DNA from: Geobacter sp.
GTDB lineage: Bacteria; Myxococcota_A; UBA9160; JADFDR01
DNA length: 40,711 bases
Assembly (NCBI GenBank): GCA_018262735.1
Contig: JADFDR010000002.1
Coordinates: 1-40,711 of the forward strand
Direction: 5' to 3'
This document shows positions 9,295 to 40,711 of the stretch, piece by piece. The notes beneath the pieces are model-generated. The model was not told the origin of the DNA. It saw only the letters and a program-made list of their open reading frames with translations, and did not search any database. Positions within the stretch are counted from its first letter, which is position 1. Each line of letters begins with the position of its first letter. Position numbers and translations under genes: made by a program.

Positions 9295-10572
9295 ATGGTC
9301 GAGCCAACTTGGGGGAAGATCTTGAGCAAGCAGAGCAACGAAGCACTCGCGGGCATCCGCGTCATCGAACTCGGGCAAATGATTTCGGCGCCGTATTGCG
9401 CGAAGCTTTTCGCCGACTTTGGTGCGGACGTCATCAAAGTCGAAGCCCCGGCAAGCACGGGGCTTCCCGGCGATCTCTCGCGCCATTGGGGGCCATTTCC
9501 GAGCGACGAGCCACACCTCGAAAAAAGCGGAACCTTTTTCTTTCTTAACACCAATAAGCGTAGTGTCACGCTCGATGTCGCGCAGGAGAAAGGCCGTGCG
9601 ATTTTGAAGAAACTGCTCGCGCAGGCCGATGTCTTGATCGAAAACTGCCATCCCGGGCAGATGCGCGAGTGGGGACTCGACTTTGCAGCGCTACAGAAAA
9701 TCAATCCACGTCTCGTGATGATCTCGATTACGCCCTTTGGTCAGACTGGACCGTACTGCGACTGGAAAGGTTACGACTTAAACGCCTATCACCTCTCCGG
9801 CGCAAGCCATCGCTATTGCGGACGCCCCGGCGAAGCACCGCTCGAACACGGGACCTTTGCTGCAGATTTCTTTGGTGCCATTTCCGCAGCGACCTGGGGA
9901 CTCGCAGCTGTGTATGGTCGAAGTCTCGTCGCGCAAAACGCGGAAGGCGGCGGACAACAGCTCGACGTCTCGTGTGCCGAAGCGATCGCCGCCGCGTTCG
10001 TCGGTGGACAAAACATCGGCGGCTATGCGCAAGACGGAAAATTCGAACATCGCACCGGCGTAGGAATGCCGCTTGGTGCGCCGGCCACGATCGTTCCCTG
10101 CAAGGATGGCTATGTGTGGATGCTCGCGCTCGAACCGGGCCAGTGGAACGGTCTTGCGAAAGTGATGGGCAATCCCGAGTGGATGCAGCTCGATCTCTTC
10201 CAAGACATGTATGCGCGCGCGCAAAACGCCGACGCGATCTATCCGATGTTGCAAGAATGGACGATGGAGCACTCGAAGCAAGAAATCATGGATTTGTGTC
10301 AGGCCAACGGATGCCCTGTGACGGCGGTCTACAACGTCGCCGAGGCGGCAGCCCAAGAACATCTCAAAGTGCGCGAGTATCTGGTCCATCTCGCACACCC
10401 TCATCTCGGCACGATTCCGACTCTCGGCGCGCCGTTCAAACTACCCAAGAGCCCGGGCGGTCCCAAGCGACCCGCACCGCTGCTTGGCGAACATAACCAA
10501 GAAGTGTATGGCGAAATGCTTAGCCAAGATGCCGCTCTTCTGACCACCTGGAAGCGCGACGGAATCATCTAA
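9295..10572 (+). CDS. family III (CaiB/BaiF) CoA-transferase, Asp-containing subunit (A1)
   Basis: LAGIRVIELGQMISAPYCAKLFADFGADVIKVE, and FGQTGPYCDWKGYDLNAY carrying the conserved family III Asp. Start is uncertain: ATG 9295, ATG 9262 or TTG 9322. The track start 9196 looks too long compared with the paralog. Confidence 0.85.
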   Translation: MVEPTWGKILSKQSNEALAGIRVIELGQMISAPYCAKLFADFGADVIKVEAPASTGLPGDLSRHWGPFPSDEPHLEKSGTFFFLNTNKRSVTLDVAQEKGRAILKKLLAQADVLIENCHPGQMREWGLDFAALQKINPRLVMISITPFGQTGPYCDWKGYDLNAYHLSGASHRYCGRPGEAPLEHGTFAADFFGAISAATWGLAAVYGRSLVAQNAEGGGQQLDVSCAEAIAAAFVGGQNIGGYAQDGKFEHRTGVGMPLGAPATIVPCKDGYVWMLALEPGQWNGLAKVMGNPEWMQLDLFQDMYARAQNADAIYPMLQEWTMEHSKQEIMDLCQANGCPVTAVYNVAEAAAQEHLKVREYLVHLAHPHLGTIPTLGAPFKLPKSPGGPKRPAPLLGEHNQEVYGEMLSQDAALLTTWKRDGII

Positions 10573-10599
10573 CGCATTTTTGAGTTATCGGAGATCGAC

Positions 10600-11835
10600 A
10601 TGGCCAACAAGCTGCCGCTACAAAAAATTCGAGTTGCGAACTTTGGTTGGGTTTGGGCCGGGCCCGTCGTCGGACAAACGCTCGGCTTCCTCGGCGCCGA
10701 GGTCTACAAGATCGAGTCGCGCGCGCGCATCGATCTCACCCGCAACTTGCCACCGTTTGCCGAGGGTGTGCGCGACCCGAACCGCAGCCTCTCGAATCAC
10801 GCGTGCTGGGCGGGCAACGGCAGCATCACGCTCAATCTCAAGAAAGACGAAGCCAAACAACTCGCGCTCGACTTCATCGCGAAGTGCGACGTCGTGATCG
10901 AAAACTTCGGCCCGGGTGTGATGAAACAACTTGGTTTCGGCTACGAAGAACTCTGCAAGGTGAAGCCCGACATCGTGATGTTCTCGATGCCGGCGGCGGG
11001 GTTGTACGGTCCGCTCAAAGACATTCGCACGTACGGGCTGAGTCTCACGAGCACGACCGGACTCGACAGTCTCACGGGTTATCTCGACGGTGCACCGATT
11101 CCCGTCGAAAACGCCTACTCGGATCCCTACAACGGAATTCTCGGCGCGTTTGCAATCGTGGCGGCGCTCCACTATCGCGATCGCAGCGGCGAAGGCCAGC
11201 ACATCGATTACTCGCAACAAGAAGCGATCATGCAGATGGTCGGGCCGGCGTACATGGATTATGTGCTCAACGGACGCGTCGCGGGGCCGATCGAAAATCG
11301 CCATCCGCGCGCTATGGCGTCACCGCACGGTGTATTCCCGTGCGCAGGCGACGATCGCTGGATCAGCATCGCCGTGCTCACCGACGAAGAATGGCAAGGC
11401 TTGCAGTGCGCCGTGAAGAAGGCAGCGGGAAGCGACGCAAGCTGGATCGATGCGCCGGAATTTGCGACGCACGAAGCGCGACTTGCGCATATTGCTTCGC
11501 TGCACGAAAAACTCGCCATGTGGACCAAGCAGTTTGGCGACACCGAACTCGCCGCGCGCTTGCAAGCTGCGGGTGTAGCCGCTGCGCCGGTTTTGAACGT
11601 CGCCGACTTGCTCAACAATCCGCACTACAAGGCGCGCAAGACGTTTCTCGAAGTGACACATCCGCTTGGCTTTGAAGAAACGATCTACGGCGCGTACGTG
11701 AAGATGAGCGAAAGCGAACCGGCGGTGCGTCCCGGGCCGTCGATGGGTCAAGACAACGAACACGTGTTCAAAAATCTGCTTGGGCTACCCGAGGCGCGCT
11801 ACGCAAAGCTCGTCGAAGAGCAGATCATTTACTGA
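10600..11835 (+). CDS. family III CoA-transferase-like subunit lacking the canonical Asp (B1)
   Basis: IRVANFGWVWAGPVVGQTLGFLGAEVYKIE. The loop aligned to the catalytic Asp reads GLYGPLKDIRTYGLSL, with Gly in place of Asp. GGAGA lies 5-6 nt upstream of ATG 10600, which is 27 nt after A1. Confidence 0.85.
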   Translation: MANKLPLQKIRVANFGWVWAGPVVGQTLGFLGAEVYKIESRARIDLTRNLPPFAEGVRDPNRSLSNHACWAGNGSITLNLKKDEAKQLALDFIAKCDVVIENFGPGVMKQLGFGYEELCKVKPDIVMFSMPAAGLYGPLKDIRTYGLSLTSTTGLDSLTGYLDGAPIPVENAYSDPYNGILGAFAIVAALHYRDRSGEGQHIDYSQQEAIMQMVGPAYMDYVLNGRVAGPIENRHPRAMASPHGVFPCAGDDRWISIAVLTDEEWQGLQCAVKKAAGSDASWIDAPEFATHEARLAHIASLHEKLAMWTKQFGDTELAARLQAAGVAAAPVLNVADLLNNPHYKARKTFLEVTHPLGFEETIYGAYVKMSESEPAVRPGPSMGQDNEHVFKNLLGLPEARYAKLVEEQIIY

Positions 11836-12041: not shown

Positions 12042-12173
12042 TTGCTCGGCTGCGGCGAACGTGCGAGCGCCACAGACAGTGCCAACGAGCAAGGAAAATT
12101 CCCCCAAAAAGAGTGCGATGCGAGACGCTGCGCATGCGATCGTTCTTTGTGCGCGACACTTACGAAAGACACC

Positions 12174-12668
12174 ATGAAGAAGAAAGAATCCGGCTCGATC
12201 GACATCGAAACCTTTCGCGCGACGAACATTGGCCAGCCGCTGATGGAAGTCGCGAAAGATTTTCAACGCCGCGCGCTCGCGAAGTTTTACGAGCGTGGCC
12301 ACGACGAGTTGCAACCGTCGCACCAAGCGGTGCTCGCCTACTTGCATGCTTCGGGCACACGGCTCACGGAACTCGCGGAACTCGCCGGAATGAGCAAGCA
12401 GGCCATGGGGCAGCTCGTCGATGAAATCGAGCGCTTGGGTTACGTCGAGCGCGTGCCCGACCCGAGCGACGGACGGGCCAAGATCGTACGCTTTACGGTG
12501 TCGGGCAAGAAGTTGATTCGCGACGGCACCAAGATCGCGAGCGAAATCCAAGAGCAATATACGGCGCTGATCGGGGTGAAACGCTTCGAGCAATTGCGCG
12601 AAATCCTCGACGAGCTGCGCAGCAAAGCCAAAATGCTGCCGATCGGCGATGAGGTTGGAGAGAAATAA
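12174..12668 (+). CDS. MarR-family transcriptional regulator
   Basis: Winged-helix segment LTELAELAGMSKQAMGQLVDEIERLGYVERVPDPSDGRAKIVRFT. Start set to ATG 12174; the track ORF begins at 12042. The stop overlaps the next gene as TAATG. Confidence 0.85.
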   Translation: MKKKESGSIDIETFRATNIGQPLMEVAKDFQRRALAKFYERGHDELQPSHQAVLAYLHASGTRLTELAELAGMSKQAMGQLVDEIERLGYVERVPDPSDGRAKIVRFTVSGKKLIRDGTKIASEIQEQYTALIGVKRFEQLREILDELRSKAKMLPIGDEVGEK

Positions 12669-13828
12669 TGTTTGCACTGCAGGGCTTGCGCATCCTCGAT
12701 CTTTCCCGGCACGCACCCGGGCCGTACTGCAGCATGTTGATGGCGGATCTTGGCGCCGACGTAATCGTGGTCGAGGCGCCTACGACGCATAAAAGCGTTG
12801 GTTCGGCGATGGGCATCAGCGATCGCGACATAGCGTTCAATCCCGTCGGACGCGGCAAGCGTTCGATCGCGCTCAATCTCAAAGATCCGGCCGCGCGCGA
12901 AGTCTGCTTGCAGCTTGCAAAAAACGCCGATGTCGTGCTCGAAGGCTTTCGACCTGGCGTCGCGACACGACTCGGTGTCGACTACGACGCCTTGCGCGCG
13001 ATGAAACCCGATTTGATCTATTGCTCGATCAGCGGCTACGGCCAAACCGGCCCCTACGCGCCGCTCGTCGGACACGATCTCAACTACATCAGCATCGGCG
13101 GTGCGCTCGGCATGATCGGAACGCCCGGCGGTGCGCCGACGATTCCGATGAACGCGATCGCAGATTTTGCGGGCGGCGGTCTCTTCGCAGCCTTCGCGGT
13201 GCTCGCGGCCGTGGTGCATCACAAGAACACCGGCGAAGGTCAATACATCGACATGGCAATGAGCGACGGCGTGCTGTCGCTCATCGGGCTGCTCGCCGGC
13301 GAAACGCTCGCCAAAGGCCGCCCCCCACGACCGGGCCAGCATTACTTGAATGGTGCCTTGCCTTGCTATCACGTCTACGAAACTTCCGACGGAAAATGGC
13401 TCAGCGTCGGCTGCATGGAGCCTTGGTTTTGGGCGCGTCTTTGCAAGCAACTCGGTTGCGAAGAGTTCAGCAACGAACAATTCAACACCGAAAAGTTTCC
13501 CGAGATTTTTGCGTTCTTGCGCGCGCGCTTCCAAGAAAAAACGCGCGACGAATGGTTTGCACAACTCAAGGACGATGAAATCTGCGCGACGCCCGTCTAC
13601 GAACTCGACGAAGCGCTGCGCGACCCGCATCTGATCGCACGCAAGATGGTCGTCGAAGTCGAAGATGCGAAGTACGGAAAAATTCCGCAGGTCGGCATCG
13701 CACCGAAATTCTCGAAGACGCCCGGCAAAGTGCGAGGCACCGCTCCGCGCGTCGGTGAACACAGCGAGGAGATCTTGCGCGAGCTGGGTTACTCGGCCGA
13801 CGCGATCGCAAAACTCACGGGAAAGTAA
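12668..13828 (+). CDS. family III CoA-transferase / alpha-methylacyl-CoA racemase-like protein
   Basis: LRILDLSRHAPGPYCSMLMADLGADVIVVE, and ISGYGQTGPYAPLVGHDLNYISIGG (the GHD-NY motif typical of racemase-type members). 386 aa. Confidence 0.85.
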   Translation: MFALQGLRILDLSRHAPGPYCSMLMADLGADVIVVEAPTTHKSVGSAMGISDRDIAFNPVGRGKRSIALNLKDPAAREVCLQLAKNADVVLEGFRPGVATRLGVDYDALRAMKPDLIYCSISGYGQTGPYAPLVGHDLNYISIGGALGMIGTPGGAPTIPMNAIADFAGGGLFAAFAVLAAVVHHKNTGEGQYIDMAMSDGVLSLIGLLAGETLAKGRPPRPGQHYLNGALPCYHVYETSDGKWLSVGCMEPWFWARLCKQLGCEEFSNEQFNTEKFPEIFAFLRARFQEKTRDEWFAQLKDDEICATPVYELDEALRDPHLIARKMVVEVEDAKYGKIPQVGIAPKFSKTPGKVRGTAPRVGEHSEEILRELGYSADAIAKLTGK

Positions 13829-14035: not shown

Positions 14036-15883
14036 TTATCCGCGAACCACCGGCAGAATCAAGCAGGATGGATGCGCGGCGTCGTGATGCACGTTTTGCT
14101 TGGCCTTGCGACGATCGCTCGCGCTCGCGCGCGCGATCTCGACTTTTGCATTGGGATTGCAATCGAACTTCGGAAAATTGCTGCTGCTCACTTCCAGACG
14201 CAAACGATGGCCGGGCAAAAAGACATACGCCGTATCGAGAAGCGAAATCGAAAGCGGCACGATCTCGCCCGGCGTGAGCCAAGCTTCGCGATCCATTCCG
14301 TTGCGATAGCGCGCACGCAAAATGCCTTCCGCCACCGGCGCGCAGTAGCCGTTCGCATCCACGTCGACGAGCTTCGCCGTAAAATCCGTGTCCGGTGCAT
14401 CGCTCGAAATCCAAAGCTCAAGCGAAACCGGGCCGGCGATGCGCAGTGCATCCTGCAAAACTTCGCTGCTATACACCAAAACGTCGTCGCGCATTTCGAC
14501 TTCGCTCTGATCGAGCACACCAGGCGAACCGAAGATCGGCGCCAGGCTTCGGCAACCGCGCGTCGGCACCGGGTCGCTCGGATCGTACACATAACGATCC
14601 ACCGTCTCGTCCGTCGGAGCACGGCGCGAAAGCTCGCCATTGCCCAGGCGCGTGTTGGCGCGACCTTGGCTGTGCAAGAAGAAATTTTCTTTGGCGTGCG
14701 ACGGCGGCCAGCTCGAAGTTTCGCGCCATTGATTTTCGCCCATCGAGAAGTAGCGCACGCGCGCCACGGCTTGCTGCACCGGTTGCGAGGCGTTTTCAGA
14801 TTTGAGCGCTTCGCCGCGCAAATACGGCTCGAAAAATTCCAGCACCAATTCACTCACACCCGCCGGCCCCGCCACGGCCTCCGGCCCGAACTCGCGCTCA
14901 CCTGCGGCCGTCGGACGAATGCTCATGTAGGTGATGTGATCCCACGGACCAAACACCAATCGGTGTGTATCGCGCACTTCGGAGCGTGGATGCTTCTTCA
15001 GACTTTCGTTCAAATCCAAGTGGCCTTGCAAAAAGCCGTCGTACCAACCTGCGATTTGCAACACGGGCACTTGGATCTCTGTGCAACGCGCCGCCACATC
15101 CACACTGCGCCAGAACTCATCGTACTTGGGATGATCGAGCCACTCGCGCCAAAACGGCGCGTGCTCAGCGTGCTCCGCGTCAGCACTGCAAGTCGCCGCG
15201 CTACAAAGTGCAGTGTTATCGCGAAGCGGAATCTCTCGCACGGCTTTCCAGGGATCTTTCGCCGCTGCCATCAACTTGCCAAACGCTTGCAATCGCTCGG
15301 CCTCCGGAAGCCGCAACGCACGATCCCAAGCCAAATTGAGCGCCCACCAAAAATTGAAACCGAGTTCGAATGCGCCGCCGCTATACGCCCAGCCCGCGTG
15401 ATAGTTCGCGCCCGTCATGTAGGCAACGCAAGCCTTGAGATGGGGAGGCGCTGCGACGGCAGCTTGCAATGCAGTGACACCGTTGTAGGACGATCCGTAG
15501 ATGCCGACGTTGCCATTGCTCCACGGCTGCCTGGCCGCCCACTCGATGGTGTCGTAACCGTCGTTCCCTTCGCAGGCAAAGGGCTGCCATTCTCCCTCGG
15601 AAGCGAAACGTCCTCGTGTATCCTGCACGAGCACGACGTAACCGCGCTCGGCGGCAAGCAGCGGATTGAGCATCAAGCCGCCGACGACCCAGGCATCACT
15701 TTTGTTGTAGGGAGTGCGGTGCACGAGTACGGGATGCTGCGTTTTCGCCTGCGTGGCACCCCGCGCAGAATCCCATGCTTCCTTCGCGCAAGAATCGGCG
15801 GGTCGGTAGATGTCCGTCGCAAGCTTGACGCCGTCCCGCATCGAGACCATCACATCGCGCTCAACGGTAATCGCTCGGCTCAT
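14036..15883 (-). CDS. CocE/NonD family hydrolase (S15 X-Pro dipeptidyl-peptidase fold)
   Basis: MRDGVKLATDIYRP, LVHRTPYNK and the nucleophile elbow GIYGSSYNG. 615 aa. GGAGG lies 5 nt upstream of ATG 15883. Confidence 0.88.
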   Translation of the reverse strand: MSRAITVERDVMVSMRDGVKLATDIYRPADSCAKEAWDSARGATQAKTQHPVLVHRTPYNKSDAWVVGGLMLNPLLAAERGYVVLVQDTRGRFASEGEWQPFACEGNDGYDTIEWAARQPWSNGNVGIYGSSYNGVTALQAAVAAPPHLKACVAYMTGANYHAGWAYSGGAFELGFNFWWALNLAWDRALRLPEAERLQAFGKLMAAAKDPWKAVREIPLRDNTALCSAATCSADAEHAEHAPFWREWLDHPKYDEFWRSVDVAARCTEIQVPVLQIAGWYDGFLQGHLDLNESLKKHPRSEVRDTHRLVFGPWDHITYMSIRPTAAGEREFGPEAVAGPAGVSELVLEFFEPYLRGEALKSENASQPVQQAVARVRYFSMGENQWRETSSWPPSHAKENFFLHSQGRANTRLGNGELSRRAPTDETVDRYVYDPSDPVPTRGCRSLAPIFGSPGVLDQSEVEMRDDVLVYSSEVLQDALRIAGPVSLELWISSDAPDTDFTAKLVDVDANGYCAPVAEGILRARYRNGMDREAWLTPGEIVPLSISLLDTAYVFLPGHRLRLEVSSSNFPKFDCNPNAKVEIARASASDRRKAKQNVHHDAAHPSCLILPVVRG

Positions 15884-16012: not shown

Positions 16013-17113
16013 TTATTCGTCTTCGCCGCAGATCTGATCGAAGACTTCGTAAGCCTCTTCGACCATGTCGAGCACGATCTGACGCGCGGGTTTCATTGAC
16101 GTCACGAAATCCACACCTTGGCCAGCGGCTTCGGTCATGAAATCCGGCATGTTCCAGTCGATCGCCGATTGCTTCACATCTGCGAAGAGCAGCAATTGAT
16201 ACGGAGCCGGAGCCGGTCGCGGCGCATCCGGGCGCTCCCACTCTTCATGCCACTTACACTTTAATGTGCGCATCGTGAAGCCCGAGATGCAGTTCGAATA
16301 CGCCGTGTCGGTGGCCTTCGCCGCAAGCAATTTCTCTTTGATGATCATGTCGACGTCGGACTCGCGCGACGGAAGCCAAACCGTTCCCGTCCACACACCT
16401 TGCGCGCCGAGCGCGATCGCGCCGGCCAAGTGACGCCCGGTGGTGACACCGCCGCCCGCGATCACCGGCGTATCGCCCGCAATCGCCACGACTTGCGGCA
16501 CGATCGAAAACGTACCGATCGGACCGGTGTGACCCGCGGCATCGTTGCCTTGCGCGATCACCGCATCGACGCCCGCTTCAATTTCGCGTTGCGCTTGGCG
16601 CGGTTTTCCGACGAGACCCCAAACCTTCATGCCTCGTGCGTGCGCGGCGTCGAGCACGAACGCCGGATTTCCAAGACCCGAGGCAAGCACGGGAACATTG
16701 TTCTCGAGTACGACTTCGAGTTGGCGGCGCGGCGTTTCTTTGTTTACCCAACCGAGGTCATAGAGTTCGGGAGTTTTCTTCGGCGCGGGAATGTTGTGGC
16801 GCTTCTTCATCTCTTCCACAAATTTGCGTTGGGCTTCGGGAATCTGCGCCTTCAAATCGTCGATCGAACCGACGGCCGGCACCGAGGCCGGAAAAACCAA
16901 GTCGATGCCGAACGGCTTCGAACCCACCTTCTCGCGCAACCACTTGATGTCCGCCTCGATTTCTTCGGGCGAATGTTGCGTTTCACCGAGCACTGCAAAA
17001 CCACCGGCGTTGATCACCGCAGCAGCGACGTCTTTGCAATGCGTAAAAGCAATGATGGGATATTCGATACCGAGCTCTTGCACGAGCCGTGTCTTCAGCG
17101 GGTCTTTGGCCAC
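16013..17113 (-). CDS. nitronate monooxygenase / 2-nitropropane dioxygenase (FabK-like) family flavoenzyme
   Basis: LGIEYPIIAFTHCKD and GVDAVIAQGNDAAGHTGPIGTFSIVPQVV. Start set to GTG 17113 with AAGGAG 6 nt upstream; the track start is 17203. Confidence 0.85.
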   Translation of the reverse strand: MAKDPLKTRLVQELGIEYPIIAFTHCKDVAAAVINAGGFAVLGETQHSPEEIEADIKWLREKVGSKPFGIDLVFPASVPAVGSIDDLKAQIPEAQRKFVEEMKKRHNIPAPKKTPELYDLGWVNKETPRRQLEVVLENNVPVLASGLGNPAFVLDAAHARGMKVWGLVGKPRQAQREIEAGVDAVIAQGNDAAGHTGPIGTFSIVPQVVAIAGDTPVIAGGGVTTGRHLAGAIALGAQGVWTGTVWLPSRESDVDMIIKEKLLAAKATDTAYSNCISGFTMRTLKCKWHEEWERPDAPRPAPAPYQLLLFADVKQSAIDWNMPDFMTEAAGQGVDFVTSMKPARQIVLDMVEEAYEVFDQICGEDE

Positions 17114-17275
17114 GTTCTTCTCCTTCGGAAATTTGCAATTTGCGGATTGGATTGGGTCGCGAAGCGACGCCCCGCGACTCGATGTCCGCGCGAACTTTGC
17201 CATCGGCGCGCCGGGGCGGCAAGCGTTGGCAGGTCAAAACGCGGGCGAGCGAATCATCGCATCGAATCCAAATCG

Positions 17276-17290: not shown

Positions 17291-17627
17291 TATTTTGCGC
17301 AACTGAGCTATGGACTCGAAACGGCGCGCCACGCAAGCCGCACCGAAGGCAAGTCGCCTGCGTTTTTGCTCACGAAGGGTGAGAATGCGCGGTGGAAATC
17401 ATGGTGAAAAGCATGATGAAAAGGGATGGCAAGTGCGAAGAGCCCTTGTGCGACTTGAAGTGCATGAATCCAAGGCACGAATTTGCGCCACGCAAACAAA
17501 GAGCGAGTCGCCAGCAAACCGGAACGCGCAGGCCCTGGCGCACGAAAACCGAAAGGCTTCCGAGGAAGAGCGTCAAAACGGGGCGGCACAAAACATCCAT
17601 TCGCGCATGTCGCGAACGAGGAGTTTC

Positions 17628-20389: not shown

Positions 20390-20439
20390 ACGGCTTTTCT
20401 ACAGCAACCAAGGCACGCAAGCAGACGGAGGAGATGGAA

Positions 20440-26211: not shown

Positions 26212-26389
26212 AGATGCATTGCCGCCAAACGAGAAAAAGTGAACCGAAGCCAACAGAAAATGCAGAGCAGATCGCAAGCCAGATTGATTGCCGCCAAACG
26301 AGAAAAAGTGAACCGAAGCCAACAGAAAATGCAGAGCAGATCGCAAGCCAGATTGATTGCCGTCAAATGAGAAAAATTGAACCGAAGCC
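26212..26389 (+). repeat. 69-bp tandem repeat, two perfect copies plus a degenerate 31-nt third copy
   Basis: Units at 26221-26289 and 26290-26358 are identical. 26359-26389 matches the first 31 nt with 3 mismatches and runs straight into the RBS (GAGG) of the LLM gene. Confidence 0.9.
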
Positions 26390-26399
26390 GAGGTGTCCG

Positions 26400-34291: not shown

Positions 34292-34295
34292 CACT

Positions 34296-35192
34296 TTATC
34301 GTTTCGTTTCTTTGGAGTTCGCTTTCTCGAATTCTTCGAGCAACGTGCGACGCATTTCGCGCTCGCGGTTCCGAATCTCCCAGAAACGCGGCGGACGTTT
34401 TTCCATGAATGCCATTCCGCCTTCCTTGCCCTCCGGCATATCGAACCAATCCGGATAAAACTGACTCGAGATCGTTCCCATCTCCTGGTAGCCATCCATT
34501 TCTTGATCGAAACTCGCTTTGAGAATTTCAAGGCAACCCGGACTCACGCGCAAAAGTTCTTCGCACCACTGATCCACTTCAGTGTCGAGTCGATCGAGTG
34601 GAACCACGCGATTCACGAGTCCCATCTGTTCGGCTTCCTGAGCAGTGTACCGTCGGCAAAGCATCCACATTTCGCGCGCTTTCTTGGCGCCGACGACCTT
34701 GGTGAGATAGGGCACGAAAAAACCATCGGCCGGACTCGACACGCGCGGCCCGGCTTGGCCGAAGATTGCGTTGTCGGCGGCGATCGTAAAATCGCAGCAA
34801 TAAGCCATGTGATTGTGTCCCGCCAAACAATATCCCTGCACGACTGCCATCACCGGTTTGCGCGAAAGACGAATCAATCGATTGTGCGGGTAGCGGTTGT
34901 AAAACGCTTCGCGCAAACCCCAGCGCTCCCACTCGACATCCCCCCCTGCACCGAAATGTTTTCCCACACCTGCAACCAAGATGACACCGATCGATGTATC
35001 ATGGTTTGCGTCATAGAACGCGCGAAACATTTCCTCCACCGTCGAAAGTGTCATCGTATTGAACTTGTTTGGCTTGTTGATCGAAACGCGCGCAATGCCG
35101 CCTTCGAGTTCCGAATGATATTTTTTTTCGTACAGGATTTGCTCGAAAACGAGACCGTCCCCTTGAACTTGTGCCCATTCTGACCAACCCAT
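34296..35192 (-). CDS. MenB/BadI-like crotonase (naphthoate-synthase / 2-ketocyclohexanecarboxyl-CoA-hydrolase subfamily)
   Basis: GQAGPRVSSPADGFFVPYLTKVVGAKKAREMWMLCRRYTAQEAEQMGLVNRVVP closely follows the MenB-type signature. Also FGAGGDV. Start set to ATG 35192 (AGGAGG 9 nt upstream). Confidence 0.8.
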   Translation of the reverse strand: MGWSEWAQVQGDGLVFEQILYEKKYHSELEGGIARVSINKPNKFNTMTLSTVEEMFRAFYDANHDTSIGVILVAGVGKHFGAGGDVEWERWGLREAFYNRYPHNRLIRLSRKPVMAVVQGYCLAGHNHMAYCCDFTIAADNAIFGQAGPRVSSPADGFFVPYLTKVVGAKKAREMWMLCRRYTAQEAEQMGLVNRVVPLDRLDTEVDQWCEELLRVSPGCLEILKASFDQEMDGYQEMGTISSQFYPDWFDMPEGKEGGMAFMEKRPPRFWEIRNREREMRRTLLEEFEKANSKETKR

Positions 35193-35367: not shown

Positions 35368-36141
35368 TTAGCGACCTTTGAAAGCAGGCGGGCGGCGCTC
35401 TGCGAACGCCGCCGGACCTTCCTTCGCATCCTCCGACGAAAACACGCGTGCGGCAAGTGCTTTTTCAAGCACGAAGCCCGGCTCGTTCAACATCGAGCGC
35501 ACTGCAATCTCTTTGGCCGTGCGCACCGCGAGCGGGCCATTCTTGCAAATTTTCTCGGCCATCTGCATGGCTTCGTTGAATACCTGATCCGCCGGCACCA
35601 CCTTGTTCACGAGTCCGACGTCATAAGCGCGCTGCGCGCTAATCGGTTCACCGGTGAGCAAAAGCTCCATCGCCACGGCCCACGGAATTTGCCGCGGTAC
35701 ACGAATATGTGACCCCCCTGCCGGAATCAACCCCCAGCGCACTTCGCCAAGACTAAACATCACGTGCTCGCCTGCGATGCGAATATCCGTGCCTGCAAGC
35801 ATCTCCATGCCACCCGCAATGCAGGCTCCGTTGACGGCAGCGATGATCGGCTTGAACACGTCCGAGAACTGGCGTTTCGTGTGATCGGGATAGCCGAGAT
35901 CGTCACCGGCGGTGAGCAGCGGAATCGCTTCTTTGAGATCCATGCCCGCCGAAAACGCTTTGTCGCCGGTGCCGGTCAAAATCGCCACCCAGAGATCGGG
36001 ATCCGCGTTGAAATCGGCAAACGCCGCATCGAGGCCAAGCAACATCGCTTTGGTAAGCGAATTCATCGCCTTCGGACGATCAATGCGCATCACGGCGATA
36101 TGACCTTTTTTCTCGTAAACGATCTCGGACGGAATCTCCAC
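35368..36141 (-). CDS. enoyl-CoA hydratase/isomerase family protein (E2, paralog of E1)
   Basis: HIAVMRIDRPKAMNSL, FSAGMDL, AAVNGACIAGGMEMLAGTDIRIAG and GEVRWGLIPAGGSHIRVPR. The track start 36186 is a TTG. GTG 36141 with GGAGA 6 nt upstream is preferred. Confidence 0.85.
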   Translation of the reverse strand: MEIPSEIVYEKKGHIAVMRIDRPKAMNSLTKAMLLGLDAAFADFNADPDLWVAILTGTGDKAFSAGMDLKEAIPLLTAGDDLGYPDHTKRQFSDVFKPIIAAVNGACIAGGMEMLAGTDIRIAGEHVMFSLGEVRWGLIPAGGSHIRVPRQIPWAVAMELLLTGEPISAQRAYDVGLVNKVVPADQVFNEAMQMAEKICKNGPLAVRTAKEIAVRSMLNEPGFVLEKALAARVFSSEDAKEGPAAFAERRPPAFKGR

Positions 36142-36196: not shown

Positions 36197-36622
36197 TCAG
36201 CGAACGCAGCGTCGAAATTTCGGCAAGCTGATTTCCGGCGTCACTTCGTCGAAAACCACTTCCACCGGCATCCCAATTTTCAATTCTTCGGGAGTGCAAC
36301 CTTGCACTTCGCTGAGCAAACGCACGCCTTCTTCGAGTTCGACGATCACGGGTGCAAGCGGTACGGAATCGCGAAACGCGGGATGCAGCGCGCGGTTCAC
36401 GACGGTCCATGTGAATACTTCGCCGCGCCCGCTCGACTTCGCCCATTCCCATTCCCAGGAACCACACTCGGCACACATTTCACGCGGCATATGCCGCCAC
36501 GCGCCACAGGATTTACAACGCTGAAAACGCAATTCACCTTGTTTGCAGAACGCGTAGAAATCTTTGCTGAAGCCTTCGAGTACCGGAAGCGGCTTCGTGT
36601 ATCCGGTTGCAGATTCGCTCAT
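36197..36622 (-). CDS. DUF35 Zn-ribbon / OB-fold protein (D2, paralog of D1)
   Basis: RCKSCGAWRHMPREMCAECGS, then GRGEVFTWTVVNRALHPAF. 141 aa. Confidence 0.88.
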   Translation of the reverse strand: MSESATGYTKPLPVLEGFSKDFYAFCKQGELRFQRCKSCGAWRHMPREMCAECGSWEWEWAKSSGRGEVFTWTVVNRALHPAFRDSVPLAPVIVELEEGVRLLSEVQGCTPEELKIGMPVEVVFDEVTPEISLPKFRRCVR

Positions 36623-36702
36623 TTCGTTCTCGCTTTCTTCAATCGTTCATTCTCGATTGGGGGATTGCACTCGATCTTTTGCTTGCGTTGGAAAAGGTTT
36701 CT

Positions 36703-37863
36703 TCAGCGACGCAAAATGGCGATGCTGCCGTCGCCAAAATCGCCCCAGCCCGTCACAACACCGATCTCGGCGTCCTTCACTTGACGCTCGCCCGCAACAC
36801 CGCGGAGTTGTCGAACGGCTTCGACGATGTGATTCATGCCGAGCACATGCGCTTCGGAAAGAAGTCCACCGTGCGTGTTCACCGGGAGTTCGCCGCCGAG
36901 TTCGATGCGTCCGCCTTCAACGAATGCACCGCCTTCGCCGCGTTTGCAAAAACCGACTTCTTCGATTTGCTGCAAGACCTCGAAGGTGAAGCAATCGTAG
37001 ATCTGCGCGAAGTCGACATCTTTCGGTGTCACTCCGGCCCTCGCAAAGGCTTCCGGCGCCGCGATCGTGAGACCGGTGCGAAAGATGTCTTTGCGATTCG
37101 TGAACTCGTCGGCGGGATACGGCTGCCCTGCGGCCACGCTCATGATGTAGGCCGGCTTTTTCTTGAGATCACGGGCGCGCTCGACGCTGGTCACCACCAA
37201 CGCCGCAGCACCGTCGGTTTCGAGACAGCAATCGAACAAGCGATACGGATCCGCGAGCATCGGCGAGGCGAGATAGTCGTCCATAGTCATGGCGCGGCCG
37301 CGCATCACCGCGTTCGGATTGAGCTGCGCGTGCTTGCGCATCGCGAGCGCGATCGCACCGAGTTGCTCGGCCTTCGTGCCATACTCATGCATGTGTCGGC
37401 GAGCCATCAGCGAATACCACTGCGGCGGCGCGGTAAGTCCATACGGCAAGTAGTAGTCGCGCGCGATCGTACCGCCGGGCAGCGACGAAACGTCTTGCGA
37501 AACCGTCTGGCGCGCCCGCGCACTCGAATAGCCATTCCAGCCCGCCGGGATCAAGACATAATCCGCAGCACCCGAAGTCACCGCGAGCGCTGCACTTTCA
37601 AGCGACGCCACCGGCGAAGCGCCTCCCATATGGATCGTCACCGCAAAGCGAAGATTGACGCAGCCAAGATTGGCTGCGAAAGCTTCGGCGGTACCGAGTG
37701 TGGGAAACGGCATGATACCGTCAATCTGCGAATTTTTGAGTCCTGCATCGGCGATCGCTCGGGTTGCGGCTTGCAATTGCAAACCGAGCAACGTCATCCC
37801 CGAACCTTCGCCGCGCAAATACTTCGTCTCGCCAATACCAACGATGCAAGCTTGATCCTTCAC
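36703..37863 (-). CDS. thiolase-superfamily (SCP2-type) protein lacking the nucleophilic Cys (T2, paralog of T1)
   Basis: ACIVGIGETKYLRG. HMGGASPVASL sits at the nucleophile position. The C-terminal ~90 aa are almost identical in protein sequence to T1. Start set to GTG 37863 (GGGGAG 5 nt upstream); the track start is 37947. Confidence 0.85.
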   Translation of the reverse strand: MKDQACIVGIGETKYLRGEGSGMTLLGLQLQAATRAIADAGLKNSQIDGIMPFPTLGTAEAFAANLGCVNLRFAVTIHMGGASPVASLESAALAVTSGAADYVLIPAGWNGYSSARARQTVSQDVSSLPGGTIARDYYLPYGLTAPPQWYSLMARRHMHEYGTKAEQLGAIALAMRKHAQLNPNAVMRGRAMTMDDYLASPMLADPYRLFDCCLETDGAAALVVTSVERARDLKKKPAYIMSVAAGQPYPADEFTNRKDIFRTGLTIAAPEAFARAGVTPKDVDFAQIYDCFTFEVLQQIEEVGFCKRGEGGAFVEGGRIELGGELPVNTHGGLLSEAHVLGMNHIVEAVRQLRGVAGERQVKDAEIGVVTGWGDFGDGSIAILRR

Positions 37864-38024: not shown

Positions 38025-39017
38025 TTACTTGCAACGCTTTTTAGTGTCGATTTTCGCAAGCTTCGCAAGGTTGAGACCGAGCAATCCAGCGCGAACCTCG
38101 TCGGTGATCTCCGCATAGCCCCACTTTTCTTGAAGTTCCTCGGGCATTTGCAGATTGCGTACCCAATCGACCACGCGCGGCATGTCGTCGAACGGCAAGT
38201 CGAGACCCATCACGATGCGATGCGAGTCGACCCACTGCAGCGCGGTACCGATCGCGTGATAACCACGGTACGGCGAGCGCTCGTACCAACCGATGATGCC
38301 CGAAAGACTCAAGTAGAGATTCATGTGCTTGCCGGCGAGTCCAATCAACTCTTCGGTATTCGGCCAACCCATGTGATAGGCGATGATCTTGAGTTCCGGG
38401 AAATCGAGAAGAACACGATCGAGTGTCATCGGCATCGAGTGTGCGCTCGGTTGCGGTACGACGTAGGACTGCCCCGTGTGCACCGTGAGTGCGATGTCGA
38501 GTTCGCAGGCCTTCTCGTAGAACGGCCACAGCGCGCGATCGTCGAGCGCGCCAAGATCTTCCGGCGCATACATCTTACAAAGTTTTGCGTTGCGCTCTTT
38601 GACGAGATACTCGAGCTCCCAGAGCGCATGTTCCATGCCACGGCGCAAAATCGGCCCGACGTTGCACTCAAGATAGATGCGATCCGGATACGGCTCGATC
38701 TCTTTCAGAATAAAACCGTTCGTCGAAAGACAGGTCGAATTGCCCGTAACGTCCATCATCGGTTCGCGAAGCGCGAAGGTCACGTCGACGCCGGACTTGT
38801 CCATATACGCAATCAACTCTTTTGCAATCGGATGGGGCCACGACGCATCAGGATCCGTGAGATTGCGTCCTGCCCACGCCTTCATCACGCCGTTCACGCT
38901 GCCCCACCAACGCTGGACATTCGGAAAGTACGCGATCTCTGCAAGTGTATCCGGGTTCATCAAATGGCATTCCGATAACGCGACGAAGTAATCTTTTCCG
39001 GCTTTCTTGGCTGTCAT
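38025..39017 (-). CDS. amidohydrolase-2 family protein (metal-dependent hydrolase / decarboxylase / hydratase fold)
   Basis: TVHTG, IIAYHMGWP and MGLDLPF match the later metal-ligand motifs of PF04909-type enzymes. The N-terminal motif reads LSECHLM rather than a clear HxH. Start set to ATG 39017 (AAGGAG 6 nt upstream). Confidence 0.75.
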   Translation of the reverse strand: MTAKKAGKDYFVALSECHLMNPDTLAEIAYFPNVQRWWGSVNGVMKAWAGRNLTDPDASWPHPIAKELIAYMDKSGVDVTFALREPMMDVTGNSTCLSTNGFILKEIEPYPDRIYLECNVGPILRRGMEHALWELEYLVKERNAKLCKMYAPEDLGALDDRALWPFYEKACELDIALTVHTGQSYVVPQPSAHSMPMTLDRVLLDFPELKIIAYHMGWPNTEELIGLAGKHMNLYLSLSGIIGWYERSPYRGYHAIGTALQWVDSHRIVMGLDLPFDDMPRVVDWVRNLQMPEELQEKWGYAEITDEVRAGLLGLNLAKLAKIDTKKRCK

Positions 39018-39038
39018 GACTTTCTCCTTGGTTGAATC

Positions 39039-39062: not shown

Positions 39063-39108
39063 TTCGAGGCCTCGCGACTCGAGTCGAGCAAGCGACACGA
39101 TGCGAGCA

Positions 39109-40711
39109 TCAGGCGTTCGCGCGCTCCGCCTTGGCCTTTTGAATCCACTTCCAGACACGATTCGGTGTCGCAGGAGTTTCGTTTGCAATGACACCAATAG
39201 GTGTCAGCGCATCTGTAATGGCATTCATGATTGCAGCCGGCGTGGTGTGCATCGCGCCTTCACCGCAGCCCTTGGCGCCAAGCGGCGCCACCGGCGAAGG
39301 CGTGCAAAGCGCAGCCTTCTCCGTCATCGGCACCTCGTTGATCGTCGGAATCAAATAATCCATAAACGTCGACACGAGTGGCTGTGCTTCCGCGTCATAG
39401 ACATACTCCTCGTACAACGCCGCACCCACGCCCTGGGCGACACCGCCTTGGATCATGCCTTCGACGTTCGATGGATTGAGCCGCACGCCGCAGTCGTCGG
39501 CGATGTAATACTTCAAGATCTCGACCTTGCCCGTCTCGGGATCGACTTCAACTTGCACAATATGACAGGCATTGGCGGCAGTGAGATAACTCCGACCACG
39601 CCCTTGCTCGTCGACCGGATTGCGACCGGCCGCAGTCCAGACGTACGTCGCTTCGGTGTTCGGCTCGATGCCCGGCGGCAAAAGATCGCTGCGCGCAAGC
39701 ATCACGCCGGCCACTTGCACAAGCGGCATCTCGGCGCCTGGTACTCCTTTGATCCGGAACATTCCATCGTGTAGTTCGATGTGATCCGCTTCGGTTTGCA
39801 TGAGATGCGCCACCACTTTCGCCATGCGCTGCGCGAGCGTTTGCGACGCACCCAACAACGCACCCGTGAGCGCAACGCCAAGCCGGCTGCCACCCGGACC
39901 AAAGTGCGGCGGCGCCGAAAGCGTGTCGAGTTGCACGACTTGCACGGCCTTCATGTCGACGCCGAAATAATCTGCGAGCACTTGCGCCGCGAGCGTGTAC
40001 TGACCTTGGCCTTCGAGCGCAAACCCGACGCGCGCCGTGATGTTGCCGAGGATGTCGATGTGTACGGTGACCCCTTCCGGCACACCGATGCTATGCACAC
40101 CCACCGTCGCATACGCGTTCCAATCAAAGACACCGGGCTCGATCGCGTTCACGACGGAAATCCCAAGATAGCGGCCTTGCTTGCGCGCCTCGGCTTGCTC
40201 CTTACGCAACTTCGTGTATTCCGACATTTCGAGCACTTTGTCGAGCGCAGCCTCGTAGTTGCCGCTGTCGTACTCGTTGCCACTCGGAATCGTGTAGGGG
40301 AACTGCTCGGGCTGGATGTAGTTCTTGCGGCGAATCTCCGCCGGATCGAGGCCGAGACTGCGCGCCGCGATATCGACCATTTGCTCGAGGACAAAGTAAT
40401 GTGGCGGAGGTCCCATTCCGCGATAAGGACTGGCCGGAAGTTTGTTCGTCATCACCAAGGTGAGGTCGTACTGCGCGGCTTGAATCGTGTAGCAACCCGT
40501 GAACGCCGCAAGCGGTTTGCCCGCCGACACGGCGCCAAAGCCTTCGGCCGTCGCACCGAGATCATCGACGAGCTTCACTTTGAGTCCTGTGAGTTTGCCG
40601 TCACGCGTGACGGCAAGTGACGCTTTATAGTGTCGGTCCCAGGCTTGACTCGAACCCGAGCCAAGATATTCCATGCGATCTTCGATCCACTTCACGGGGC
40701 GCCCGCCAGTC
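39109..40711 (-). CDS. molybdenum hydroxylase (xanthine dehydrogenase / CoxL-like) large subunit, C-terminal ~530 aa; the 5' end lies beyond the right edge
   Basis: The frame is open to the window edge (...TGGRPVKWIEDRMEY...). Typical family segments: PYRGMGPP, GGSRLG and PLGAKGCGEGA. The M at 40695 in the track is an internal GTG. Confidence 0.88.
   Translation of the reverse strand, partial: TGGRPVKWIEDRMEYLGSGSSQAWDRHYKASLAVTRDGKLTGLKVKLVDDLGATAEGFGAVSAGKPLAAFTGCYTIQAAQYDLTLVMTNKLPASPYRGMGPPPHYFVLEQMVDIAARSLGLDPAEIRRKNYIQPEQFPYTIPSGNEYDSGNYEAALDKVLEMSEYTKLRKEQAEARKQGRYLGISVVNAIEPGVFDWNAYATVGVHSIGVPEGVTVHIDILGNITARVGFALEGQGQYTLAAQVLADYFGVDMKAVQVVQLDTLSAPPHFGPGGSRLGVALTGALLGASQTLAQRMAKVVAHLMQTEADHIELHDGMFRIKGVPGAEMPLVQVAGVMLARSDLLPPGIEPNTEATYVWTAAGRNPVDEQGRGRSYLTAANACHIVQVEVDPETGKVEILKYYIADDCGVRLNPSNVEGMIQGGVAQGVGAALYEEYVYDAEAQPLVSTFMDYLIPTINEVPMTEKAALCTPSPVAPLGAKGCGEGAMHTTPAAIMNAITDALTPIGVIANETPATPNRVWKWIQKAKAERANA

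Follow-up and report, generated by a model that had tools for sequence, protein, structure and literature searches.

The oxygen-free "2,3-seco" opening of steroid ring A is confined, in published work, to denitrifying beta- and gammaproteobacteria. Its hallmark enzymes are the Mo enzyme 1-TDH/AtcABC and SRAH, the characterised steroid ring A beta-diketone hydrolase. Using mass spectrometry, Jacoby et al. 2025 showed which enzyme types the degradation of ring A requires: a CoA ligase or transferase, an acyl-CoA dehydrogenase (ACAD), a hydrolase that releases acetate, an enoyl-CoA hydratase and an aldolase that releases acetyl-CoA. The same authors point out that genes of these types occur in SRAH/1-TDH clusters. 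The island described here, from an uncultured lineage labelled Geobacter, looks like a version of this route.

The window is the whole contig of 40,711 bp, and flanking sequence is readable only through related loci, whose taxon labels are those of the MAG records. Gene families were called by Pfam scans of all long ORFs, and every family listed in the first-pass annotation was recovered at its position: five CoA_transf_3, four ECH_1 (crotonase), two Thiolase_C_1, two DUF35 (zf-ChsH2 and OB_ChsH2_C), two SnoaL and two Bac_luciferase proteins, one NMO protein, a Peptidase_S15/PepX_C (CocE/NonD) hydrolase and an Amidohydro_2 protein, together with MoCoBD_1/2, XdhC, a MobA-like NTP transferase, a NarI-like, Fer4 and CCG protein, a MarR regulator and a PAS-HisKA-HATPase-REC kinase. 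These data support the view of a CoA-thioester catabolic island containing aldolase-like (Cys-less thiolase/DUF35) and MenB/BadI-like enzymes.

A minus-strand operon running from 40711 to 34296 encodes AtcA-like, SRAH-like, Ltp2-like aldolase, DUF35, EchA19-like and MenB/BadI-like proteins. The first of its genes visible in the window (39109-40711, minus strand; MoCoBD_1/2) encodes a large Mo-binding subunit of the xanthine-oxidase family resembling AtcA/1-TDH alpha, which is incomplete because the contig ends within the gene; the 533 residues present are the C-terminal two thirds of the protein. The FAD and FeS subunit genes would lie just beyond the contig end. The published atcA-specific reverse primer matches positions 40261-40287, which encode the motif PSGNEYDSG, with 1 mismatch (chance expectation 0). 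The atcA-specific primers also match a full-length ortholog with 3 mismatches, and the predicted amplicon of 1173 bp agrees with the published size of about 1100-1200 bp. The subunit and its full-length ortholog from the related locus L008 share 89% identity. In a comparison set made up of a 130-aa Thauera-type atcA fragment and CoxL, the N-terminus of this ortholog was 61.5% identical to the fragment over 130 aa, and the first 115 residues of this stretch scored 156 bits (63.5% identity) vs 94-98 bits for CoxL by the same method. Mo-cofactor maturation may be served by an XdhC-type insertion chaperone (30216-31340, plus strand; XdhC_CoxI and XdhC_C) and a MobA/MocA-like nucleotidyltransferase (31327-32334, plus strand; NTP_transf_3).

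The adjoining Amidohydrolase_2 protein of 330 aa (38025-39017, minus strand) is related to SRAH at the level of orthologs. Over 324 aa it is 66% identical (81% positives) to the Sterolibacterium sp. protein P0121, and the two ends of P0121 (MAKTAK...GHGH) match the cloning primers of the characterised SRAH gene SDENv1_10585. Members of the island protein's family are abundant, at 70-80% conservation, among MAGs with the labels Deltaproteobacteria, Myxococcota, Dadabacteria and Dehalococcoidia, and the SRAH-like gene adjoins AtcA-like genes in 7 of the 14 metagenome loci that span 6 kb or more. The first-pass annotation could name no characterised pathway and proposed a synteny search; that search ties the pair of Mo enzyme and amidohydrolase to 1-TDH/AtcABC and SRAH, and links the island to the partly characterised 2,3-seco pathway of anaerobic steroid degradation.

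The next genes of the operon encode a candidate acetyl-CoA-releasing aldolase (36703-37863, minus strand), whose top PDB match is Ltp2 (6OK1, E 6e-77), and its presumed partner, a stand-alone DUF35 protein with a zinc ribbon and an OB fold (36197-36622, minus strand), whose gene always comes after the thiolase-fold gene in related loci. A second set comprises another Ltp2-like protein (20434-21609, plus strand; Pfam, alignment and synteny) and another DUF35 protein (21637-22059, plus strand). Alignment showed that both thiolase-fold proteins lack both catalytic cysteines, as had been claimed. Against Ltp2, a steroid aldolase, they reach 262 bits, and against BbsB 116 bits; on the BbsB profile of NCBIfam, whose cutoff is 750 bits, they score 107-115 bits. 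The operon protein is 73-76% identical to orthologs in Sterolibacterium/Rhodocyclaceae MAGs and retains Tyr294 of Ltp2, but has His at the position of the second catalytic Tyr (Tyr344), which counts against the 2,3-seco reading.

Two crotonases complete the operon. The candidate enoyl-CoA hydratase (35368-36141, minus strand), which would convert SDA-CoA to 5-OH-SDA-CoA, has EchA19 as its top NCBIfam match (282 bits, under the 400-bit cutoff) and is kept in the operon across related loci. The MenB/BadI-like candidate for an acetate-releasing, retro-Claisen hydrolase (34296-35192, minus strand) scores 232 bits on MenB and 214 bits on BadI, both under the NCBIfam cutoffs, and matches the MenB structure 2IEX (E 3e-60); its 73-82% identical orthologs adjoin the atc-like operon in other loci. 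For EchA19, MenB and BadI alike, the scores under the cutoffs count against the 2,3-seco reading. A second EchA19-like crotonase (22150-22908, plus strand; Pfam and NCBIfam) has 68-75% identical orthologs in Binatia, Myxococcales and delta MAGs, and a generic one lies at the left edge of the island (6900-7772, minus strand).

The count of five family III CoA-transferase-fold proteins is correct as regards the fold, but not as five transferases: there are two alpha/beta pairs and one racemase-like protein. In the first pair, a candidate for activation of the seco-acid, the alpha-type subunit (9295-10572, plus strand) shares 64-68% identity with its counterparts in SRAH clusters, and the beta-type subunit (10600-11835, plus strand) 69-72% with the CoA-transferase pair of the SRAH-containing clusters L038, L043 and L047. 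The second pair, assigned by Pfam and paralog grouping, consists of an alpha-type subunit with Glu at the catalytic Asp position (17607-18944, plus strand, its ORF open from 17310) and a beta-type subunit (18941-20161, plus strand), which are fused as proteins of about 800 aa in other MAGs. The fifth protein (12668-13828, plus strand) has Far and MCR as best PDB matches (E 1e-65) and keeps MCR His126 and Asp156, the His being Tyr in the other four paralogs; this signature of alpha-methylacyl-CoA racemases makes an epimerase more probable than a transferase. Such a racemase signature, together with EchA19-like hydratases, would fit methyl-branched, steroid-type acyl-CoAs.

Around these genes lie a MarR-family regulator (12042-12668, plus strand), a CocE/NonD-family alpha/beta hydrolase (14036-15883, minus strand; NCBIfam TIGR00976, 452 bits) with 49-58% identical orthologs in related loci, and an NMO-family FMN enzyme (16013-17203, minus strand), a candidate enoyl- or acyl-CoA oxidoreductase whose top PDB matches are FabK enoyl reductases (E 5e-39) and whose 66-77% identical orthologs adjoin CoA-transferase/aldolase genes elsewhere. 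A SnoaL_4 (NTF2-fold) protein (22912-23376, plus strand) is 59% identical to the SnoaL_4 protein whose gene comes immediately after the SRAH-like one in a gammaproteobacterial MAG. A SnoaL_2 (NTF2-fold) protein (27244-27786, plus strand) and the adjacent LLM oxidoreductase (26400-27263, plus strand; F420-dependent TIGR03619 subfamily, 271 bits, cutoff 167) are kept in L001 and L031. The LLM oxidoreductase at the left edge (7807-8874, minus strand; F420-dependent TIGR03617, 385 bits, cutoff 278) has a 51% ortholog adjoining the module in L005. The hybrid histidine kinase with PAS and receiver domains (32327-34291, plus strand), possibly a regulator, is also kept in two close relatives, L008 and L031. 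The island is split by an FTR1 permease-cytochrome c fusion of 797 aa (23573-25966) and an ORF of unknown type, both missing from the earlier inventory.

No tblastn match in the window was obtained with ACAD, SDR, AMP-ligase, MaoC, KstD-like and OYE queries from related clusters, and the intergenic gaps are too short to hide a gene between island genes; the claimed lack of ACAD, SDR and AMP-ligase thus holds for the contig. At the level of the pathway, the claim that classical dehydrogenases are missing is weakened. Indeed, the membrane protein at 27884-29857 (minus strand), with a NarI-like transmembrane domain, two [4Fe-4S] clusters and two CCG domains, has M. smegmatis EMO as its sole PDB match (9OJN, E 1e-92), and its former label "HdrD-like" is replaced by EMO/EtfD-type ETF:menaquinone oxidoreductase homolog. 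EMO/EtfD is the membrane electron outlet of ETF-linked ACADs, and its presence therefore implies that such dehydrogenases are encoded elsewhere. A 53% ortholog heads a CoAT-CoAT-ECH-thiolase-DUF35-ECH operon in Sterolibacterium MAGs. In close relatives, no ACAD, SDR or AMP-ligase gene follows the operon end, where SUI1 and a histidine kinase come after the FAD/FeS subunits; in its more distant versions, the operon does include ACADs and an AMP-ligase.

Homology, gene adjacency and its conservation are evident across relatives. The order M-S-L, SRAH-like, thiolase-like, DUF35 and ECH, with a divergent BadI-like ECH, recurs in L031/L032 and L033/L034 and in 6-7 of the 14 metagenome loci, and the operon is also found in MAGs that carry Deltaproteobacteria, Binatia and Myxococcota labels. 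Where the SRAH-like gene occurs in beta- and gammaproteobacterial MAGs, it is accompanied by orthologs of the CoA-transferase pair (66-70%), of the thiolase/DUF35/ECH/ECH set (57-77%) and of SnoaL_4 (59%).

Taken together, the gene content makes it likely that the island serves the oxygen-independent opening and trimming of the A ring in a 3-keto steroid or a closely related polycyclic alicyclic ketone, as a homolog of the 2,3-seco route. The AtcA-like enzyme, matured by XdhC and MocA, would hydrate a 1-en-3-one and oxidise it to a cyclic 1,3-diketone, which the SRAH-like amidohydrolase would hydrolyse to a seco-acid. For all steps after this hydrolysis we infer the gene assignments, as we do the substrate, a steroid or close polycyclic alicyclic ketone. 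The CoA thioester would be made by a heteromeric family III CoA-transferase (9295-11835 or 17607-20161) and a 4-ene introduced by an ACAD encoded off the contig, with electrons passing through ETF and the EMO/EtfD homolog to menaquinone. The MenB/BadI-like crotonase might then release acetate by vinylogous retro-Claisen hydrolysis, the EchA19-like crotonase hydrate the enoyl-CoA to a tertiary alcohol, and the Ltp2-like protein with DUF35 (36197-37863) yield acetyl-CoA and a ketone by a retro-aldol reaction. The second aldolase/DUF35/hydratase set and the NMO, CocE, racemase-like, SnoaL and LLM proteins probably act on later ring B or methyl-branched intermediates.

The absence from the contig of KstD/AcmB, delta-4 reductase (OYE), HIP, side-chain and ACAD genes counts against a steroid, and the same chemistry might instead serve ketones of the cyclohexanol/cyclohexanone type, cyclic terpenoids, hopanoid or resin-acid fragments or naphthenic acids. 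The pathway of MhyADH (a cyclohexenone hydratase/dehydrogenase, used as an outgroup in the atcA literature) and cyclohexane-1,3-dione hydrolase, whose gene is still unknown, shares this logic, and the SRAH-like family is common in MAG lineages without known steroid degraders. We nevertheless regard a non-steroid substrate as unlikely, though worth bearing in mind, given the 66% identity to an ortholog of SRAH, which does not convert monocyclic diketones, the retention of both atcA primer sites, and a KstD-like gene beside the SRAH-like gene in one gammaproteobacterial MAG. Moreover, a retro-aldolase closest to Ltp2 is required only if hydration yields a tertiary alcohol, which is the case at C5 of steroids.

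If paralogs from expanded families (CaiB-type, crotonase, LLM) had merely come to lie side by side, as a patchwork without a single pathway, this would explain transcription in several directions, the insertion of unrelated genes (for FTR1-cytochrome c and a histidine kinase) and the separation of modules g12-g19 and g29-g34 in some genomes. This reading is improbable, however, since the CoA-transferase/aldolase module, the core operon and the Mo enzyme meet again in the unrelated lineages L002 (Binatia), L006 (delta) and L047, and the core operon keeps its gene order and direction across loci at 60-90% identity. Synteny and homology also largely refute the novel bbs-like route of the first-pass annotation, in which an aromatic or alkylsuccinate-type acid would be activated by transferases only and degraded without classical beta-oxidation dehydrogenases. 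The transferase pairs do resemble BbsEF (104-119 bits to PDB 9FN0), thiolase-fold protein plus DUF35 resembles BbsAB, and the window lacks ACAD, SDR and ligase genes. Yet BbsB has the catalytic Cys that the island proteins lack, and these fall far below its cutoff and closer to Ltp2; glycyl-radical and succinate-adduct genes are absent; the Mo enzyme and amidohydrolase, which match AtcA and SRAH, are left unexplained; the EMO homolog implies use of ACAD/ETF; and ACADs and a ligase are encoded in related operons. We give this route very little credence.

With regard to the 2,3-seco route, Jacoby et al. reported two Geobacter-related isolates with SRAH-like genes and without 1-TDH alpha above 35%, which counts against this reading here. 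The genes of our operon nonetheless appear to match, by their families, the steps that Jacoby et al. 2025 proposed without gene assignment, and would thus place the route in a Geobacter-labelled uncultured lineage of ecological interest.

On present sequence comparisons, the island is best filed as a 2,3-seco-type cluster for anaerobic degradation of steroid ring A, lying outside the lineages in which the literature places this pathway. The steroid ring A hydrolase (SRAH) of anaerobic steroid degradation is an Amidohydrolase_2 protein (Jacoby et al. 2025, PMC11780191), and in several denitrifiers its gene clusters with those of the XO-family 1-testosterone hydratase/dehydrogenase (1-TDH, AtcABC) (PMC11780191). 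The first-pass annotation could name no characterised pathway with the composition of the island; a precedent can now be given, as its Mo enzyme/Amidohydro_2 pair matches AtcA and SRAH by primer sites, by comparison with the Sterolibacterium sp. protein P0121 and by synteny.

Degenerate primers specific for atcA matched the window with one mismatch at 40261-40287 and an orthologous locus (L008, 6332-6354) with three, where 0 matches were expected by chance. The predicted product of 1173 bp has the published size, and the motifs encoded at the primer sites, GRVEFIDN and PSGNEYDSG, are present. A Thauera-type atcA fragment, taken from Table S2 of the atcA primer paper, shares 61.5% identity over 130 residues with the large subunit of L008, a comparison that covers 130 aa of atcA and goes via an ortholog, the window being without the N-terminal third of the Mo subunit; with the large subunits of the related loci L002, L006 and L033 the identity is 54-58%. 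Over the first 115 residues of this stretch, atcA scored 156 bits (63.5% identity) versus 94-98 bits for two CoxL proteins by the same method. In relatives at 87-89% identity, the genes of the FAD (M) and FeS (S) subunits directly precede that of the large subunit (L), inside which the window contig ends. Primers called atcA-specific match, with the expected product size, a gene of a lineage labelled neither beta- nor gammaproteobacterial. Because they match, environmental atcA surveys may already include or misattribute such lineages, and the primers used in them would probably amplify window-type genes too.

The protein P0121 starts with MAKTAK and ends with GHGH, the termini encoded by the SRAH cloning primers. 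The Amidohydro_2 protein of the window (38025-39017, minus strand) is 66% identical to it (81% positives) over 324 residues and can be regarded as an SRAH ortholog; the best 120 matches to it were MAG or metagenome sequences only. In the window (39017/39109) the SRAH-like gene lies next to the AtcA-like one, as it does in the related loci L031, L033, L047, L054, L055, L062, L064 and L069. An ortholog of the window Amidohydro_2 gene is carried by 14 metagenome loci with a length of 6 kb or more; XO-family subunits adjoin it in seven of them, and in six of these seven the order M-S-L-SRAH is complete, in most cases with aldolase-like (thiolase-fold), DUF35 and crotonase genes coming next and a BadI-like crotonase gene divergent upstream. 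In beta-/gammaproteobacterial MAGs, the SRAH-like gene is accompanied by orthologs of the family III CoA-transferase pair of the window (66-70%), of the aldolase/DUF35/crotonase/crotonase set and of the SnoaL_4 protein (59%), and these loci also hold acyl-CoA dehydrogenase (ACAD), MaoC hydratase, SDR or KstD-like genes. The Sterolibacterium SRAH ortholog has SDR, OYE and crotonase genes as neighbours, and no atcABC genes within 10 kb. In a gammaproteobacterial MAG (L041, 5600-12692) the gene set is compact and differently arranged: its SRAH-like gene lies behind a TonB-dependent receptor gene, with a KstD-like FAD enzyme and SnoaL_4 gene divergent upstream; after it come genes for a second SnoaL_4 protein, for a CoA-transferase and for an MFS transporter, and NMO and CocE-like genes are nearby.

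The window makes up an entire contig of 40,711 bp. Genes were called from an ORF list and codon-position GC, and the proteins were scanned against Pfam. All the gene families listed in the first-pass annotation were found in place: five CoA_transf_3 proteins, four crotonases, two Thiolase_C_1 proteins each followed by DUF35, SnoaL_4 and SnoaL_2 proteins, two luciferase-like (LLM) oxidoreductases, one NMO, one CocE/NonD hydrolase, one Amidohydro_2, the MoCoBD large subunit cut at the sequence end, XdhC, a MobA-like transferase, a NarI-like/Fer4/CCG membrane protein, a MarR and a hybrid kinase. The reported lack of ACAD, SDR and AMP-ligase genes was also borne out by tblastn of the window with queries from related clusters. 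Since ACAD, SDR, AMP-ligase, MaoC, KstD-like, OYE and DMSO-reductase-family queries matched nothing beyond the two thiolase-fold genes, these absences are valid for the contig. NCBIfam gave an equivalog-level name to none of the CoA-transferases, crotonases or thiolase-fold proteins of the window. The earlier annotation had missed a region at 23573-26472 (minus strand) that splits the island and encodes a 797-aa cytochrome c domain/FTR1 iron permease fusion followed by a 168-aa ORF that overlaps, at its start, the probable beginning of the divergent LLM gene; the fusion is 68% conserved in a close relative (L001). At 6144-6890 (minus strand), a 248-aa ORF that looks well coding (GC3 of 0.71, a low GC2 of 0.37) and has no Pfam match even at E=1 adjoins the first crotonase gene; it may belong to the island and encode a membrane or transport protein. 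Under relaxed Pfam settings, 6147-6890, 25969-26472 and 1-426 gave no match. The left 6 kb hold ordinary genes, among them (489-5842) a PLD-type cardiolipin synthase and a NirC-NirD-NirB cluster (formate/nitrite transporter, NADH nitrite reductase), which shows that the organism can reduce or assimilate nitrite.

The count of five CoA-transferases held for the fold and not for the function. By alignment, four of the proteins form two alpha/beta pairs (9295-10572 with 10600-11835, and 17607-18944 with 18941-20161), which are fused in other MAGs as proteins of about 800 aa. The fifth (12668-13828) is nearest to mycobacterial alpha-methylacyl-CoA racemases (E 1e-65) and alone keeps the His126/Asp156 pair of the racemase MCR, the His being Tyr in the other four paralogs. 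The alpha-type member of the second pair (17607-18944) has Glu at the catalytic Asp position of the family and carries some 20 inserted residues close to its N-terminus; upstream of the gene, the reading frame stays open for about 100 codons. Both thiolase-fold proteins (20434-21609, plus strand; 36703-37863, minus strand) match best the steroid side-chain aldolase Ltp2 (6OK1), with 262 bits versus 116 bits for BbsB; their NCBIfam BbsB scores are 107-115 bits against a cutoff of 750 bits. In the alignment, both lack either thiolase Cys, Tyr294 of Ltp2 is kept and Tyr344 is His, and a DUF35 gene is adjacent. The crotonase at 34296-35192 scores 232 bits for MenB (cutoff 380) and 214 bits for BadI (cutoff 468) in NCBIfam, and belongs to the MenB/BadI subfamily while being neither enzyme itself. 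These results agree with the aldolase-like and BadI-like logic proposed earlier for the island. The crotonases at 22150-22908 and 35368-36141 are EchA19-like, with scores below the equivalog cutoffs. The sole PDB match of the protein first described as HdrD-like was 9OJN, the EMO/EtfD (ETF:menaquinone oxidoreductase) of M. smegmatis (E 1e-92), and its Pfam domains (Nitrate_red_gam, Fer4 and two CCG) have the EMO architecture in one polypeptide.

A scan of genomes with one thiolase-fold query found a syntenic contig in a MAG labelled uncultured Geobacter sp., with 76-94% protein identity from MarR to the Mo subunit. It had been considered that the missing ligase and dehydrogenase genes might lie immediately outside the window; however, in this contig and in L031 the FeS and FAD subunit genes precede the Mo large subunit and SUI1 and histidine kinase genes lie beyond, and therefore no ligase or dehydrogenase is expected just past the contig end. 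Two modules are conserved. One (racemase-like, CocE, NMO, CoA-transferase pair, aldolase-like, DUF35, crotonase) occurs in Binatia, Myxococcales and delta MAGs. The other (two crotonases, DUF35, aldolase-like) is 65-76% identical in Sterolibacterium/Rhodocyclaceae MAGs, where two CoA-transferases and an EMO homolog with 53% identity come before it; in Sterolibacterium its flanks hold housekeeping genes and an FbiC-like gene, not atcABC. L002, L006 and L047 likewise show linkage between the two modules and the Mo enzyme, and L033, from a Deltaproteobacteria MAG, has the same operon (M-S-L, Amidohydro_2, aldolase-like, DUF35, crotonase). In L033 (12423-21161) the operon continues with the gene of a 974-aa Mo enzyme of the DMSO reductase family, and then with ACAD, nitroreductase, true thiolase, AMP-ligase and alpha/beta hydrolase genes. 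The LLM genes at 7807-8874 and 26400-27263 exceed the cutoffs of F420-dependent subfamilies (TIGR03617, TIGR03619), and F420 genes (FbiC-like CofG/H fusion, CofE-type ligase, F420H2-dependent quinone reductase, Fno-like protein) flank related betaproteobacterial MAG clusters (L012, 13676-16186; L038, 1-2972 and 9243-9920). F420 may be a cofactor of the pathway, which would be unusual for Betaproteobacteria.

The nearest genome record bears the label uncultured Geobacter sp.; records of other operon carriers are assigned to Deltaproteobacteria and Binatia, and the genes recur in Myxococcota-labelled MAGs. The 2,3-seco pathway is described for Sterolibacterium denitrificans, Steroidobacter denitrificans, Thauera sp. 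GDN1 and Azoarcus/Aromatoleum (Yang et al. 2016, as cited in later work; PMC11780191). The only published SRAH/1-TDH survey restricts the 2,3-seco pathway to denitrifying beta-/gammaproteobacteria and suggests that strict anaerobes may need another route (PMC11780191); in the literature searched, we found no later report of SRAH/1-TDH outside these two classes. The window falls outside this host range, which is a statement on distribution and not on mechanism. In the same survey, Geobacter sp. AOG1 and Geomobilimonas luticola have SRAH-like genes, yet no 1-TDH alpha subunit above 35% (PMC11780191). Either the window lineage differs from these isolates or MAG labels are loose.

In the mechanism that we propose, the Mo enzyme would convert the 1-en-3-one to the 1,3-dione, the SRAH-like hydrolase would open the ring and a CoA-transferase pair would form the thioester. 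An ACAD encoded off the contig would then add the 4-ene, its electrons being passed via ETF to menaquinone by the EMO homolog, and the BadI/MenB-like crotonase would split off acetate. Crotonase-type beta-diketone hydrolases stabilise a thioester (di)enolate, and the acetate-releasing step would fit these enzymes. An EchA19-like crotonase would hydrate the enoyl-CoA and, because hydration at C5 gives a tertiary alcohol, retro-aldol cleavage would be needed, presumably by the Cys-less Ltp2-like/DUF35 pair. The second aldolase/DUF35/crotonase set, together with the NMO, CocE, racemase-like, SnoaL and F420-type LLM proteins, may act on later ring B or methyl-branched intermediates; IpdC, an NMO-family enzyme, is an acyl-CoA reductase in steroid C/D-ring degradation. 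The first two steps draw on orthology-level similarity and conserved adjacency, and the others on matching conserved neighbours to the published reaction list (PMC11780191). In that list, the steps after SRAH call for a ligase or transferase that attaches CoA, an ACAD, a hydrolase that releases acetate, an enoyl-CoA hydratase and an aldolase that yields acetyl-CoA, with genes assigned to none of them (PMC11780191).

Other readings of the island or of its members were considered. Hydroxylation of a CoA ester of the hmf/furoyl-CoA or HCR type was rejected, the large subunit being nearer to atcA than to HCR (264 bits). Arylsuccinate pathways of the bbs/bns type were set aside as well: the island had been called bbs-like, but its thiolase-fold proteins are Cys-less and nearer to Ltp2 than to BbsB, and ACAD and SDR are missing. 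For single proteins, the MenB of menaquinone synthesis does not suit the crotonase at 34296-35192, given a score below the cutoff and the wrong context, and the EMO match rules out a heterodisulfide reductase role for the CCG protein. Since the AtcA comparison covers 130 aa, the substrate might also be a non-steroid alicyclic compound; we regard this as rather improbable.

Returning to steroid ring A, a more ambitious reading would be that uncultured bacteria of the Desulfobacterota, Myxococcota and Binatia types have a complete water-dependent 2,3-seco-type pathway, wired to menaquinone by an EMO/EtfD-type oxidoreductase, with transferase-only activation in the window lineage, where a conserved flavoenzyme, of the NMO/FabK type or the F420-type LLM, may replace the ACAD; we put this forward tentatively, with more doubt than confidence. 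If true, it would supply the missing route of steroid mineralisation under iron-reducing, sulfate-reducing or methanogenic conditions that was flagged by Jacoby et al. 2025 (PMC11780191). With AtcA-like and SRAH-like genes side by side on MAG and metagenome contigs of other lineages, the question of distribution becomes testable with named genes. Moreover, the conserved operon supplies candidates for activation (the CoA-transferase pair), for acetate release (the MenB/BadI-like crotonase), for hydration (the EchA19-like crotonase) and for the aldolase (the Ltp2-like protein with a free DUF35).

As in known 2,3-seco systems, an AtcA-like XO-family Mo enzyme adjoins an SRAH-like Amidohydro_2 gene, the window has candidates for the proposed CoA transferase, hydratase, aldolase and extra hydrolase steps, and orthologs of the CoA-transferase pair and of the thiolase/DUF35/crotonase/crotonase set are found in Sterolibacterium and betaproteobacterial MAG clusters. 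In contrast to these systems, the atc-like, SRAH-like and aldolase genes form one operon in the window type, the host is labelled Geobacter, Deltaproteobacteria, Binatia or Myxococcota, and the contig is without ACAD, SDR, MaoC and ligase genes while having an EMO/EtfD homolog, NMO, CocE and F420-type LLM genes. Compared by description, MhyADH (Mo-dependent cyclohexenone hydratase/3-hydroxycyclohexanone dehydrogenase) and the cyclohexane-1,3-dione hydrolase of Alicycliphilus denitrificans likewise work in two steps, in which an XO-family enzyme uses water to oxidise an enone to a cyclic 1,3-dione and the ring is then opened by hydrolysis, but their substrate is monocyclic and no aldolase/DUF35 module is needed. 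The bbs operon shares a heteromeric family III CoA-transferase, a thiolase-fold protein with DUF35 and a crotonase; however, BbsB is a true thiolase with catalytic Cys, bbs has no Mo enzyme or amidohydrolase, and BbsG (ACAD) and BbsCD (SDR) are missing from the window (Pfam, tblastn). The EMO/EtfD proteins of Syntrophus aciditrophicus and M. smegmatis (9OJN) have the same NarI-like heme b membrane domain, two cubane [4Fe-4S] clusters and HdrD-like CCG domains, whereas the window homolog has 657 aa versus 706 and 1042 aa and is adjoined by neither etfAB nor an ACAD gene. Finally, the Ltp2-ChsH2(DUF35)/ChsH1-ChsH2 system of actinobacterial steroid side-chain degradation (6OK1) and Sal/Shy of Proteobacteria share the Cys-less thiolase fold with a DUF35 partner, and with Ltp2 the window proteins have in common the conserved Tyr294 and the retro-aldol logic after hydration. 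They differ from it in having a free-standing DUF35, a crotonase and not a MaoC-type enzyme as hydratase, His in place of Tyr344, and, as presumed target, the remnant of ring A and not the C17 side chain.
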